A stretch of 64,000 nucleotides of DNA from Escherichia coli. GTDB lineage: Bacteria > Pseudomonadota > Gammaproteobacteria > Enterobacterales > Enterobacteriaceae. The stretch lies in assembly GCF_003334765.1 (NCBI RefSeq), contig NZ_QOWT01000003.1; one strand, written 5' to 3'. The notes beneath the pieces are model-generated. The model did no database searches, had not been told where the DNA came from, and saw nothing but the letters and a program-made list of their open reading frames with translations. Positions 7,365 through 19,932 of this stretch are shown here, in pieces (within the stretch, counting starts at the first letter, position 1; every line of letters begins with the position of its first letter). Position numbers and translations under genes: made by a program.

Positions 7365-8561
7365 TTAAGGTGCTACAGCGTGTTTGCCTTCCCAGACAAC
7401 TTCGCGGTAGTGCTTCACGTCGGTGTCGCCTTCAGTGCTGATAACCAGCACCACGGCATCTTTGTTCAGCGCCAGTTTTTCCATCAGGCTTTGACGTTGC
7501 GGGTGATAATGAACCGCTGCGAGAACGCCCAAACCGACAGCGCCGGATTCACCGGAGATGATGCGCGGGTCGTTGCCGTACGGATTACCCAGCACGCGCA
7601 TACCTAATGCGGCAACGCTGTCCTGGCAGGAGATGAATTGGGTGGCGCAGTTACGTAGGATTTCCCAGCCCAGCGGGTTAGGTTCGCCACAGGCCAGGCC
7701 TGCCATGATGGTGGCCATATCACCGCCAACGTTGACGATGTCGCCTTTGACGCCGGAGCGATAAATACAGTCAGCTTTGTCAGGTTCAACAATAATGCTG
7801 TGCAGATTTTGCGGGCTATAGACGTCGACCAGATAACCCAGCACACCACCGGCCATTGCTCCGACACCGGCTTGCAGCAGAACGTGCGTCGGGGTTACGC
7901 CCATTTCACGCATTTGCTCGACGGCTTCATCTGCCAGGGTTGCGTAGCCTTGCATGATCCAGGTTGGGATTTTGGTGTAACCTTCCCATGCCGTGTCCTG
8001 TACCACTTCCCAGCCGTGCTGCTGCGCGTGTTGCATGGTCAGGCGAACGGTATCGTCATAGTTCATATCCGTGACGATGCACTCGGCACCGAGGTTCAGA
8101 ATGGCGTCAACGCGTTCCTGAGCAGAACCTTTCGGCATGTAAATCACCGCATTCTGTCCGAGTTGCTGTGCTGCCCACGCCACACCGCGCCCGTGGTTGC
8201 CGTCGGTGGTGGTCGCGAAAGTCATTTTTTCGCCGATGGCATTTTTCAGGTGCTCAAATGACAGCGTTTCGATATCAAGATGATATTTTTCACACAATAA
8301 TTGAGCGATGGCGTACGCACCGCCAAGCATTTTGAAGGCGTTCAGACCGAATCGTTTTGATTCGTCTTTGACGAGAATTTTCTTCACACCAAAAAGGTTT
8401 GCGAGATCGTCCAGCGCACAAAGCGGTGTTGGGCGATAACCAGCTATTTTCTGGTGGAACTGGCGCGCCAGTTTGGCCTGGCTTTGCGAAAAGAGCGGTG
8501 ATGTTTCGCCGTTGAAAAATTTGTTATCGGCGATATCAATCTTCAATGAGAAAACGGACAT
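7365..8561 (-). CDS. ygeX: 2,3-diaminopropionate ammonia-lyase (PLP-dependent) YgeX/DpaL
   Basis: 398-aa ORF; synteny and length match K-12 YgeX. Confidence 0.9.
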   Translation of the reverse strand: MSVFSLKIDIADNKFFNGETSPLFSQSQAKLARQFHQKIAGYRPTPLCALDDLANLFGVKKILVKDESKRFGLNAFKMLGGAYAIAQLLCEKYHLDIETLSFEHLKNAIGEKMTFATTTDGNHGRGVAWAAQQLGQNAVIYMPKGSAQERVDAILNLGAECIVTDMNYDDTVRLTMQHAQQHGWEVVQDTAWEGYTKIPTWIMQGYATLADEAVEQMREMGVTPTHVLLQAGVGAMAGGVLGYLVDVYSPQNLHSIIVEPDKADCIYRSGVKGDIVNVGGDMATIMAGLACGEPNPLGWEILRNCATQFISCQDSVAALGMRVLGNPYGNDPRIISGESGAVGLGVLAAVHYHPQRQSLMEKLALNKDAVVLVISTEGDTDVKHYREVVWEGKHAVAP

Positions 8562-10284: not shown

Positions 10285-12063
10285 ATGGAGCTTGCTACTA
10301 CGCAGTCAGTATTGATGCAAATTCAACCGACAATTCAGCGTTTTGCCAGAATGCTTGCCAGCGTTTTGCAGCTTGAGGTTGAGATCGTTGATGAAAACTT
10401 GTGTCGCGTTGCCGGAACGGGCGCGTATGGGAAGTTTCTTGGTCGCCAGTTGAGCGGCAACTCACGCCTGCTCCGCCACGTCCTGGAAACGAAAACTGAA
10501 AAAGTTGTGACACAGTCTCGCTTCGATCCCCTTTGCGAAGGTTGCGATAGTAAAGAAAATTGCCGCGAAAAAGCATTTCTGGGTACGCCTGTCATTTTAC
10601 AGGATCGTTGTGTTGGGGTGATAAGTTTGATTGCCGTTACCCACGAGCAACAAGAGCATATCAGTGATAATTTACGCGAATTTTCTGATTATGTTCGCCA
10701 TATATCCACCATTTTTGTTTCGAAACTTCTGGAGGATCAGGGGCCAGGAGATAACATCAGTAAAATATTTGCGACCATGATCGATAATATGGATCAGGGC
10801 GTATTAGTTGTAGATGATGAAAATCGGGTTCAGTTTGTTAATCAGACTGCCTTAAAAACACTTGGTGTTGTGCAAAATAATATTATTGGGAAACCTATCC
10901 GTTTCAGACCATTAACATTTGAGAGTAATTTTACCCATGGACATATGCAGCATATTGTTTCATGGGACGATAAAAGTGAATTAATCATTGGTCAATTGCA
11001 TAACATTCAGGGCCGACAATTATTTTTAATGGCGTTTCACCAATCGCATACCAGTTTTTCTGTAGCAAATGCACCTGATGAACCGCATATTGAACAATTG
11101 GTTGGCGAGTGCCGTGTTATGCGGCAATTAAAACGACTCATTAGCCGTATTGCACCCAGCCCATCCAGCGTTATGGTGGTTGGTGAAAGCGGCACGGGTA
11201 AAGAAGTCGTCGCCCGTGCAATCCATAAGTTGAGCGGAAGACGGAATAAACCCTTTATTGCTATCAACTGTGCCGCGATTCCGGAGCAGCTTCTGGAGAG
11301 CGAACTGTTCGGTTATGTTAAAGGTGCATTTACTGGCGCTTCTGCCAACGGTAAAACAGGGTTGATTCAGGCGGCGAATACGGGCACGCTGTTTCTCGAT
11401 GAAATAGGTGATATGCCATTAATGTTGCAGGCTAAATTACTGCGCGCTATTGAGGCACGTGAAATTCTGCCGATTGGTGCCAGTAGCCCAATACAAGTCG
11501 ACATTCGCATCATTTCTGCAACTAATCAGAATTTGGCCCAGTTCATTGCCGAAGGTAAATTCCGCGAAGATCTCTTCTACCGACTTAATGTTATCCCGAT
11601 AACTCTGCCACCGCTGCGTGAACGTCAGGAAGATATTGAACTATTGGTGCATTACTTTTTACATCTGCATACCCGTCGTCTGGGATCGGTTTATCCTGGC
11701 ATTGCTCCCGATGTCGTCGAAATATTGCGTAAGCATCGTTGGCCCGGAAACCTGCGCGAGTTAAGCAATTTGATGGAATATCTGGTTAACGTGGTTCCTT
11801 CAGGTGAAGTTATCGACAGCACGCTATTGCCGCCAAATCTGCTGAATAATGGCACAACGGAGCAAAGTGATGTAACAGAGGTCAGTGAGGCGCACCTGTC
11901 ACTCGATGATGCGGGCGGCACGGCGCTGGAGGAGATGGAAAAGCAAATGATCCGCGAGGCGCTTTCACGTCATAACAGCAAGAAGCAAGTTGCTGATGAA
12001 CTGGGCATCGGCATTGCTACGCTCTATCGCAAGATTAAGAAATATGAGTTGTTAAACACATAA
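10285..12063 (+). CDS. ygeV: sigma54-dependent transcriptional activator YgeV
   Basis: 592-aa ORF; AAA+ sigma54-interaction domain (GESGTGKE Walker A, ESELFGY motif) and C-terminal HTH; N-terminal sensory domain. Confidence 0.93.
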   Translation: MELATTQSVLMQIQPTIQRFARMLASVLQLEVEIVDENLCRVAGTGAYGKFLGRQLSGNSRLLRHVLETKTEKVVTQSRFDPLCEGCDSKENCREKAFLGTPVILQDRCVGVISLIAVTHEQQEHISDNLREFSDYVRHISTIFVSKLLEDQGPGDNISKIFATMIDNMDQGVLVVDDENRVQFVNQTALKTLGVVQNNIIGKPIRFRPLTFESNFTHGHMQHIVSWDDKSELIIGQLHNIQGRQLFLMAFHQSHTSFSVANAPDEPHIEQLVGECRVMRQLKRLISRIAPSPSSVMVVGESGTGKEVVARAIHKLSGRRNKPFIAINCAAIPEQLLESELFGYVKGAFTGASANGKTGLIQAANTGTLFLDEIGDMPLMLQAKLLRAIEAREILPIGASSPIQVDIRIISATNQNLAQFIAEGKFREDLFYRLNVIPITLPPLRERQEDIELLVHYFLHLHTRRLGSVYPGIAPDVVEILRKHRWPGNLRELSNLMEYLVNVVPSGEVIDSTLLPPNLLNNGTTEQSDVTEVSEAHLSLDDAGGTALEEMEKQMIREALSRHNSKKQVADELGIGIATLYRKIKKYELLNT

Positions 12064-16996: not shown

Positions 16997-17013
16997 GCCT
17001 TACGCATCTCGAA

Positions 17014-17087
17014 GCGGGCGTAGTTCAATGGTAGAACGAGAGCTTCCCAAGCTCTATACGAGGGTTCGATTCCCTTCGCCCGCTCCA
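17014..17087 (+). tRNA. glyU: tRNA-Gly (anticodon CCC)
   Basis: 74-nt sequence GCGGGCGTAGTTCAATGGTAGAACGAGAGCTTCCCAAGCTC...CGCCCGCTCCA with 7-bp acceptor stem, CCC anticodon in loop CUUCCCAAG, T-loop GGTTCGATTCC, encoded CCA end. Confidence 0.95.
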
Positions 17088-17200
17088 ATTTATCTTCGCC
17101 GTAATACTTCCCCATTTTGTTGTAAATAAAAAGCGTTTACGCAATGCAATCCTTTTGTAACAACCCAGGTAAAACACCTTATTTTCAAGTTGTTAAATAA

Positions 17201-18853
17201 GTGGTTATCTACGCTTTTAACAAACGATTGATGGAATATTTTATGAAAGGGAAATCTGCATTAACTCTTCTGCTCGCTGGTATATTTTCGTGCGGCACAT
17301 GCCAGGCGACAGGGGCAGAAGTGACGAGTGAATCTGTATTTAACATTCTTAATTCCACGGGGGCAGCAACAGATAAAAGTTATTTATCGTTAAATCCAGA
17401 TAAGTATCCTAATTATCGTCTTCTGATTCACTCAGCCAAATTACAAAATGAAATAAAGAGCCACTATACCAAAGACGAAATTCAAGGATTGCTAACATTA
17501 ACAGAAAACACACGAAAGTTAACGTTGACGGAGAAACCCTGGGGAACGTTTATTCTTGCTTCTACTTTCGAAGATGACAAAACAGCGGCAGAAACCCACT
17601 ATGATGCTGTCTGGTTGAGGGATAGTTTATGGGGCTATATGGCATTAGTATCAGATCAGGGAAATAGTGTAGCCGCAAAAAAGGTTCTGCTCACCCTGTG
17701 GGATTATATGTCTACGCCCGACCAGATTAAGCGGATGCAGGACGTCATTAGCAACCCAAAACGACTGGATGGAATTCCCGTGCAAATGAATGCTGTGCAT
17801 ATCCGATTTGACAGCAACTCCCCCGTGATGGCAGATGTGCAGGAAGAAGGCAAGCCGCAGCTGTGGAACCATAAACAAAATGATGCTTTAGGTCTTTACC
17901 TTGATCTCCTTATACAAGCAATCAACACTGGTACTATTAACGCTGAAGATTGGCAAAAAGGTGACCGATTAAAGTCGGTTGCGCTGCTGATTGCTTATCT
18001 GGATAAAGCCAATTTCTATGTTATGGAAGATTCCTGAGCATGGGAAGAAGATGCCCGATTAAACACATCTTCCGTTGCACTGGTGACCTCTGGACTGGAA
18101 CGTTTGTCAAACCTACTCTCGAAGAAAGACTCTGTTTTTGTCTCTGATTTACTACGCGAAGCTAAAGTCAATGAACTGGATGAAACTCTTTCAACAACGA
18201 GGTTGAACCACCTCATAGATAAAGGTTATGAAAGAATAACGTTACAGCTTGATTTAGGGGGAGAATCCCCAGGTTATCTGGAAAAAGATAAACATTACAG
18301 AGAAGCCGATGCGGCTTTACTTAATGTTATTTATCCTACAAATCTTTCAAAGATAAACACCAGAAGAAAAGAGCAAGTTCTAAAAATAGTTAAAAAACTA
18401 GCAGGTCCGTATGGTATAAAAAGATACGAGAAGGATAATTATCAGTCGGCAAATTTTTGGTTCAATGATATTAAAACCGATACCGATCAAAATTCGCATG
18501 CAAAAAGAGAAAAGAGCTTCATTCCATCAACAGAAGCAGAATGGTTTTTTGACTCATGGTATGCAAAATCAGCAGCAATTGTTTATAAAGAATCAAGAAA
18601 AGAAGAGTATTTGAATGACTCAGTACAATTTATGAATAGATCATTGGCCCAAATAACAGGCGAGAATATGATTGGTGCAAATGGCAGGAGCGTACCAGAA
18701 ATGGCACTTCCCGAAAGCTATAACTATATCCACAAGTCGGGAACTTTGCATGAAGCGCCAAGCCCTATCATTCCGCTAAATTGGTCGAAAGCTTCAATGA
18801 CTCTCATGTTGAAAGAGATGTCCAACCTTATCAATGATGAGGGAATTAAATAG
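17201..18853 (+). pseudogene. ygeQ: glycoside hydrolase family 15-like lipoprotein, interrupted by in-frame TGA (ygeQ-like)
   Basis: Two ORFs (17201..18037, 18083..18853) in the same frame separated by a single TGA at 18035..18037; GH15-like WEE...NTSS motif immediately after the stop; N-terminal signal/lipobox-like segment. Confidence 0.75.
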
Positions 18854-18984
18854 TTTTCATAATGAGTTACAGCACAACGTTGGGTATTGACTGAGCAAGA
18901 TGAACGACAAGGACAACGACATCAGCCTTATGAGGAGCAAGAAAATGAAAGCAAATTCGAAAACGATCAGAAGGATGAAAGTTA

Positions 18985-19932
18985 ATGTTCGGTCTGAGGA
19001 CAGTAAATCGAAACACTCATACGTTTGAAACCACTTTTCAAAATTGGAAAGAAAATGGCGAAGATGTTGCATTATTAATGCCCGAATTTAGTGCTAAATG
19101 GCTACCGATAGCAGAAGAGAGTGGCAGCTGGTCTGGATGGGTATTGCTTGGAGAAATATTTCCCTTAATTTCATCTGAGCTCGCTGGGATGGCTTTAATG
19201 CCAGAAACGGAAAGGTTAATAGGGGAATGCCTCAGTTTATCCAGTTCCCCGTTAAATCTAAAGCATCCTGAACTAAAATATAATCGTTTGCGCGTAGGTA
19301 AAGTATTTGATGGAGTATTGAGCCCTGCTCAACCACTAATAAGAATATGGACAGGGGAATTGAATCTTTGGTTAGATAAAGTCACAGTCTGCCAATACGG
19401 AAACGCTCCAGCGTTAGACAAAAAATCGTTATATTGCTCCATTCATTTTGTAATTGGATTTAGTAAAACATGTTACAGAAGTCTTGTTGATATTGAAGTT
19501 GGTGATGTTTTATTAATCTCAAATAATTTGGCTTATGCGGTTGTTTATAATACAAAAATTTGTGATTTAATTTATCCAGAGGAGTTAAAAATGGCTGATC
19601 ATTTTGAGTACGAGGAAGATTTTGAAACAGATGATTTTGATATCAAAAAAAACGAGAGTGAGATTTATGATGAAAATGACGATCAGATGATTAATAGTTT
19701 TGAAGACTTGCCTGTAAAAATTGAGTTTGTTCTTGGTAAGAAAATAATGAATCTATATGAAATAGACGAACTCTGTGCAAAAAGAATAATATCTCTGCTT
19801 TCTGAATCTGAGAAAAATATAGAAATACGTGTAAATGGCGCGCTAACTGGCTATGGCGAACTTGTTGAAGTGGATGATAAATTGGGCGTAGAGATTCATT
19901 CTTGGTTATCAGGGCATAATAATGTCAAATAG
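18985..19932 (+). CDS. epaO: T3SS cytoplasmic sorting platform/C-ring protein (SctQ; SpaO/YscQ family)
   Basis: 315 aa; C-terminal SpoA-like region (VKIEFVLGKK...EIRVNGALTGYGELVEVDDKLGVEI); acidic linker; immediately precedes the sctRSTU homologs. Confidence 0.8.
   Translation: MFGLRTVNRNTHTFETTFQNWKENGEDVALLMPEFSAKWLPIAEESGSWSGWVLLGEIFPLISSELAGMALMPETERLIGECLSLSSSPLNLKHPELKYNRLRVGKVFDGVLSPAQPLIRIWTGELNLWLDKVTVCQYGNAPALDKKSLYCSIHFVIGFSKTCYRSLVDIEVGDVLLISNNLAYAVVYNTKICDLIYPEELKMADHFEYEEDFETDDFDIKKNESEIYDENDDQMINSFEDLPVKIEFVLGKKIMNLYEIDELCAKRIISLLSESEKNIEIRVNGALTGYGELVEVDDKLGVEIHSWLSGHNNVK

Follow-up and report, generated by a model that had tools for sequence, protein, structure and literature searches.

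The Salmonella SPI-1 island, which is complete and functional, carries its genes in the order invFGEABCIJ-spaOPQRS. For the ETT2 island of Escherichia coli, the isoform with an 8.7-kb eiv deletion was reportedly first catalogued by Ren et al. in 2004. An 8.74-kb ETT2 deletion isoform appears in that part of a review (PMC11068852) in which its authors revisit their earlier survey of isoforms in APEC, and a separate publication states that eivJICAEGF is lost “between two small direct repeats” (PMC5422975). Because the latter statement cites a paper on Flag-2, the published claim is weakly sourced. This work concerns a 64-kb stretch of E. coli DNA (referred to here as the window) in which 131 bp separate ygeQ from epaO. 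We conclude with high confidence that these 131 bp are a scar left where 8,737 bp were deleted from the glyU-linked ETT2 island. The deletion most likely arose through short-repeat slippage or illegitimate recombination, and it is apparently old, inherited, and spread by recombination.

The location is that of ETT2: a tRNA-Gly gene lies at 17014-17087, xdhABC and actS are found upstream, and epa, epr, org, ygeG-K, yqeH-K, and yqeF/G are found downstream. The features around the interval are as follows, with a slash marking the breakpoint.

17014 to 17087, plus strand: tRNA-Gly (glyU), the chromosomal anchor beside ETT2 (Rfam, 17014-17084, 71.6 bits; PGAP annotation of BS74R-D, 8015-8088 in locus L001)
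17243 to 18853, plus strand: ygeQ, a glycoside hydrolase family 15 (GH15) gene (pkgA, EC042_3075 homologue), 1,611 nt
18854 to 18866, plus strand: retained native ygeQ 3' flank, TTTTCATAATGAG, 13 nt, identical through the G at 18866 to what follows the GH15 stop codon in both intact loci
18866 to 18867, no strand: deletion junction, CATAATGAG/TTACAG, where 8,737 bp of intact ETT2 is missing
18866 to 18985, plus strand: eivJ 3' remnant (SpaN/InvJ/SctP family), the last 39 codons and TAA, ~120 nt
18985 to 19932, plus strand: epaO (SctQ/SpaO family), a 315-aa ORF with the same start and frame in the divergent E7-1N7
19922 to 21626, plus strand: epaP, epaQ, and epaR (SctR, SctS, and SctT), export apparatus (ORF list; PGAP annotation of BS74R-D)

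The gene content is that of the 8.7-kb isoform. The window lacks eivF, eivG, eivE, eivA, eivC, and eivI, the deletion has brought ygeQ and the 3' end of eivJ together immediately before epaO, and epaOPQRS and eprHIJK are kept, with epaS frameshifted.

The C-terminal ORF of the ygeQ/GH15 gene ends with TAG at 18851-18853, and epaO begins with ATG at 18985 (ORF list and sequence). The resulting spacing of 131 bp (18854-18984) agrees with the figure of about 130 bp given in an earlier note on this DNA. That note had also called the gap AT rich, a description that does not hold up: the GC content of the gap (38.9%) is higher than that of ~85% of the 131-bp windows over positions 17100-34000 (mean, 34.6%). 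As the gap lies above the island average, AT-richness is no distinguishing property. Compared with the whole 64-kb window, which has a GC content of 46%, the gap is modestly lower, at the 28th percentile. Nor is the gap an intergenic spacer, given that 18866-18985 is the 3' end of eivJ; the interval consists of the junction and a gene stump. By tblastn, residues 151-189 of O157 EivJ match 18866-18982 at 94.9% identity (E = 1e-20), and a profile search matches EivJ to the SpaN C terminus. The stump has no start codon, translation places TAA and TGA in frame directly upstream, and its own TAA overlaps the epaO ATG (TAATG). In BS74R-D, which is 99.99% identical to the window over 19.6 kb, PGAP labels the stump “SpaN/EivJ family, incomplete, missing N-terminus.”

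The possibility that the gap holds a functional RNA or a regulatory element was considered and rejected. An Rfam search returned no family in the gap (glyU was the only match), and across 18400-19200 promoter-like sites were not in excess and no terminator was found. A minus-strand ORF at 18857-19072 (71 aa), which runs antisense to the coding sequence of the eivJ remnant and epaO, is unsupported and was treated as spurious.

Breakpoints were placed by comparison with two independent intact ETT2 loci, O157:H7 Z1811 (L004) and the more divergent E7-1N7 (L003). Exact anchors put the last retained base on the left at position 1997 of the Z1811 locus and 1773 of the E7-1N7 locus, and the first retained base on the right at 10735 and 10511, respectively. 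The deleted length is exactly 8,737 bp relative to each intact locus, and the missing segment corresponds to bases 991297-1000033 of NZ_CP062729.1. Both breakpoints fall inside the gap, between 18866 and 18867, where the earlier note had supposed that a deletion junction might be preserved. The deletion extends from 13 nt past the ygeQ (GH15) stop to eivJ codon 150/151.

In both intact loci, PGAP annotates the GH15 gene as being followed by a 180-nt GhoT/OrtT-family gene, eivF, sctC (eivG), the gatekeeper gene (eivE), the SctV gene (eivA), the SctN gene (eivC), a SpaM-family gene (eivI), eivJ, and epaO. The order A-I-C-J expected in the earlier note is therefore A-C-I-J in ETT2, a trivial correction. 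The genes lost are the GhoT/OrtT-family gene, the regulator gene eivF, the secretin gene eivG (SctC), the gatekeeper gene eivE (SctW), the export gate gene eivA (SctV), the ATPase gene eivC (SctN), the stalk gene eivI (SctO), and the 5' three-quarters of eivJ (SctP). The central proposal of the note, that an eiv block is missing between ygeQ and epaO by deletion, is thus upheld, since intact loci carry eivF-G-E-A-C-I-J at exactly this place. Its claim that the whole block had gone is too strong, as the last 39 codons of eivJ survive, and the extent of the loss was understated on the other side, where the deletion also took the GhoT/OrtT-family gene, along with a hairpin that lies downstream of ygeQ in intact loci. 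A tblastn search of the 64-kb window with all O157 Eiv proteins gave the EivJ C terminus as the sole match, and the deleted 8,737-bp segment had no blastn match in the window. An arrangement with ygeQ naturally beside epaO and the eiv genes elsewhere, which would speak against deletion, was not observed: the eiv genes lie between the two in intact loci, and the window holds no further eiv sequence.

The sequences around the breakpoint in the two parents and in the window are given below.

Left parent: ...TTTTCATAATGAG/GCGGTCCTGGATTAAAAGGACCGC...
Right parent: ...CCCAACACAATGATG/TTACAGCAC...
Window: ...TTTTCATAATGAG/TTACAGCAC...

Alignment to complete ETT2 for microhomology, as suggested in the earlier note, showed that the junction of the window, which is also the majority junction, shares only 1 nt exactly (G); either parent could be the source of this G at 18866. 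An imperfect 8-mer direct repeat with one mismatch is present at the two sites, as CATAATGA after ygeQ (inside the retained flank at 18854-18866) and as CACAATGA in eivJ, and lies out of register by one base. When random breakpoint pairs were drawn from the same AT-rich DNA in a permissive Monte Carlo analysis, 3.3% of them had an equal or better repeat. Given the 1-nt microhomology, the out-of-register repeat, and this chance level, repeat-mediated slippage is plausible, rather than proven, for the window allele.

The intact allele also contains a hairpin with an 8-bp stem and an N8 loop (GCGGTCCT-GGATTAAA-AGGACCGC; Z1811 locus, 1998-2021). The first nucleotide of the hairpin is also the first base of the deletion, 13 nt past the GH15 stop, such that the hairpin abuts the left breakpoint, and it is lost in the window. 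A 61-nt stretch with the hairpin has a predicted dG of -10.8 kcal/mol (z = -4.1), and 0 of 200 shuffled sequences were as stable. As no T-run follows, the hairpin is not a canonical intrinsic terminator. Hairpins beside short repeats have a classic association with slipped-mispairing deletions.

To gauge how widely the scar occurs, 5,426 complete E. coli genomes were surveyed. The junction is present in 1,939 to 1,941 of these genomes (36%) and, with 1,941 carriers, is not an artefact. The undeleted eivJ site is kept in 1,263 genomes, and at least 80% of eivA is kept in 979; in none of the 5,426 does eivA occur at more than one place. In another ~330 genomes, which represent other isoforms, eivA is only partly kept: just the 3' 27% of the gene remains, beside an AraC/eivF-like fragment (e.g., NZ_CP086526.1, 945617-946168). 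The isoform of these genomes is a different internal eiv deletion, probably corresponding to the published 4.99- or 5.68-kb one, and it retains both parental sites of the 8.7-kb deletion.

The junction itself exists in two forms. In 15 of the 1,941 carriers it reads CATAATGATGTTACAG, with one extra T (referred to here as +T), and the remaining ~1,926 have the form without this T (-T). The +T form was located at 301-361 in extracted locus L006 and at 2001-2061 in L007 to L013; its carriers include ETEC strains TW11681 and WS1933D as well as 504239, EA2, MB53, LR-46, F3_13_1_3, and the AH/CX/CT group. The +T sequence is the exact product of an exchange within the AATGA of the AATGA/CAYAATGA direct repeats. 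A slipped-mispairing deletion should have one repeat copy at each parental breakpoint and leave a single copy at the junction. Here, CATAATGA and CACAATGA are present in the parents, the +T allele of the 15 genomes is the expected product, and the window allele is one T short, with 1 nt of exact microhomology. All 7 +T loci examined share EpaQ WP_000998122.1, and in a comparison of 7 +T, 7 -T, and 2 intact loci, all sampled +T strains have two private SNPs just to the right of the junction. With these SNPs in common, the +T strains represent one local haplotype, which could equally be a separate event. The +T and -T classes also have states in common that differ from those of the two intact references, each of which comes from a distant lineage. 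Descent of the -T form from an undeleted eivJ parent that already lacked the T was also considered. Among the 1,263 undeleted genomes there were no exact matches to such a parent, and the best matches all carry the T; as every undeleted allele carries it, parental polymorphism does not explain the -T junction.

In the history that we favor, the deletion would most likely have come about through RecA-independent illegitimate recombination or replication slippage between the imperfect repeats CATAATGA and CACAATGA, and the stable hairpin at the left breakpoint may have assisted. The primary product would have been the now rare junction allele CATAATGA-TGTTACAG (+T), and the common -T allele, as found in the window, would have arisen when the lineage that later became widespread lost one further T. 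From there, the scar would have been inherited as an old lesion and spread by recombination rather than having been re-formed in each strain. On grounds of parsimony, +T first followed by loss of the T appears to be the most economical sequence of events.

Three other accounts were weighed. The first, which we regard as possible though on balance unlikely, makes the common -T junction primary: a break-and-join event or template switch on 1 nt (G) would have produced it, the CAYAATGA likeness would be coincidental, and +T would be either an independent second deletion or a later insertion. The single nucleotide of exact microhomology and the modest improbability of the imperfect repeat (P of ~0.03 in the permissive Monte Carlo analysis) are compatible with this account. 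The imbalance of ~1,926 -T genomes to 15 +T genomes and the private SNPs beside the junction in +T strains also point toward it, but each version of it has a cost. If +T were a second deletion, two independent events would have to agree within one base on both sides, which is very unlikely without a sequence-directed mechanism; if +T were an insertion, restoration of the parental T would be less parsimonious than its loss. In either case, the +T allele equals the repeat-recombination product exactly.

A second account, which we consider improbable, is that of a recurrent hot spot, with many independent origins across E. coli lineages in place of one or two ancient events. The segment has been called “often deleted” owing to its flanking repeats (PMC5422975), yet these repeats (5 nt exact, 8 nt imperfect) are weak for high-frequency deletion, and ~99% of carriers have the non-canonical -T form of the junction, not the product expected to recur at a repeat hot spot. 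The junction does occur in strains of very different origin and on two flank backgrounds, with the flanks of the window, ATCC 8739, and AR_0085 lying many SNPs away from those of O26, O111, and O43 strains, and undeleted alleles are also present in small genomes with a 100%-identical left flank; descent combined with homologous recombination of the flanks explains sharing across sister lineages equally well. Finally, a reading in which the short arrangement came first, and strains such as O157 and 042 gained the eiv block by insertion between ygeQ and epaO, is effectively refuted: it has only the bare presence/absence polymorphism in its favor, whereas the gap keeps a truncated eivJ 3' end without a start codon, the 39 C-terminal codons of an inserted gene would not pre-exist at its target, and the SPI-1 order invF...invJ-spaO agrees with the intact ETT2 loci. 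The start-less eivJ remnant thus sets the polarity as deletion, and an old deletion, most likely by repeat-associated slippage or illegitimate recombination, subsequently inherited and exchanged, remains our preferred reading.

The genes on either side of the scar carry lesions of their own. On the left, the ygeQ/GH15 gene is colinear with the intact gene of ATCC 8739, from which it differs at 9 nt, and is split by one in-frame nonsense codon (GGA to TGA, 18035-18037, codon 265); the ORF beside the gap is the C-terminal part of this split gene. Strains with an intact GH15 gene include ATCC 8739 and O26. Since the same nonsense codon splits the gene in K-12, the K-12 “YgeQ” is just its N-terminal 264-aa fragment (WP_000676919.1). 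Between glyU and ygeQ, at 17097-17101, O157 and many other strains have ~78 extra bp (Z1811 locus, 159-236) that are missing from the window and K-12, a difference that splits many genome matches into two pieces.

On the right, EpaO matches the NCBIfam profile NF006018 (SpaO-type SctQ) with 487 bits, residues 2-315 aligning with profile positions 3-303 of 303. Measured against the 328-aa O157 form, epaO is marked as frameshifted by PGAP both here and in all of the deletion carriers examined. Within the 5' end of the gene (18945-19040), the window reads CTCATACG where O157 reads CTC-TACG; with the extra A, the ATG at 18985 opens a 315-aa epaO that spans the whole SctQ profile, and the same frame is found in E7-1N7 (MFGLRKVNGNTHSFETTFQNWK...). 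The O157 form, shorter by 1 bp, may be the derived one, in which case the pseudogene flag may be an annotation artefact. Further along, epaS/SctU (21635-22755) is split into ORFs of 243 aa and 130 aa by a frameshift near 22363, a further inactivating lesion. According to the PGAP annotation of the near-identical BS74R-D, orgA is frameshifted and the LuxR-type regulator gene at 27853-28485 has an internal stop; the lytic transglycosylase gene past the regulator (start, ~28504) is also flagged in that strain. The ygeH gene of BS74R-D, which is otherwise 99.9 to 100% identical to the window, holds an IS2 element, at a site where the alignment blocks overlap by 6 bp (30727-30732 in the window), probably the target duplication. 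Lacking IS2, the window has an uninterrupted ygeH (HilA-family regulator). IS2 in ygeH is a known feature of ETT2 isoforms (PMC11068852).

Functionally, a tblastn search of the 64-kb window found no SctC, SctV, or SctN for a SPI-1-type injectisome. With SctC, SctV, SctN, SctW, and SctO gone, together with most of SctP, the locus would be unable to assemble one. As such, ETT2-related phenotypes in strains of this kind must stem from surviving regulators or remnants instead of an ETT2 needle complex. With the hairpin lost and no recognizable promoter, epaOPQRS would be expressed only by read-through from upstream. The scarred island often keeps open epaO/P/Q/R frames, and one could speculate, with considerable doubt, that a new ygeQ-epa transcription unit arose through the deletion and maintains expression of the remaining export-gate genes. 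The wide retention of the island in scarred form would then reflect a selected non-secretory role. The +T/-T dimorphism would also be a phylogenetic marker for one versus two losses. Short of this, the strain has a common degenerate ETT2 isoform whose significance goes little beyond bookkeeping. In practical terms, the junction CATAATGAG/TTACAG and the rare +T variant provide a simple in silico or PCR marker for ETT2 isoform typing, and the scar is a small case study of pathogenicity-island decay, probably through short-repeat- or hairpin-associated deletion.

Compared with SPI-1, whose inv/spa arrangement sets the gene order to be expected here, the window is without the whole inv-equivalent half. 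The ETT2 remnant of K-12 has the same ygeQ allele with its premature stop and matches the window at 100% identity over 17000-18379. The homology ends at 18379, within ygeQ, where a larger deletion took the junction, epaO-S, and more; this scar is therefore absent from K-12. Relative to intact ETT2, as in EAEC 042, O157:H7, and ST69 (PMC2808357, PMC7058095), the flanks and remaining genes of the window are colinear and 94 to 99% identical. The differences are the missing 8,737 bp, which span the GhoT-like gene through eivJ', the ygeQ nonsense codon, and, from the PGAP annotation of BS74R-D, the epaS and orgA frameshifts and the stop in the LuxR-type regulator gene. The closest match is the 8.74-kb isoform. 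As far as the isoform account in PMC11068852 goes, it concerns the same glyU-side island and the same eivF-to-eivJ loss, and 8,737 bp fits 8.74 kb; like the window, this isoform retains epaO-S, eprH-K, orgA/B, and the regulators, and we find no substantive difference between the two. Together with the frequent eivJICAEGF loss noted elsewhere (PMC5422975), this bears out the earlier note's remark that such a deletion had been described for many ETT2 variants. The scar is thus the common, already described ETT2 deletion isoform, to which this analysis makes small additions: breakpoints resolved to the base, the stump of eivJ, a hairpin abutting the left breakpoint, the 36% frequency, and the +T/-T dimorphism.
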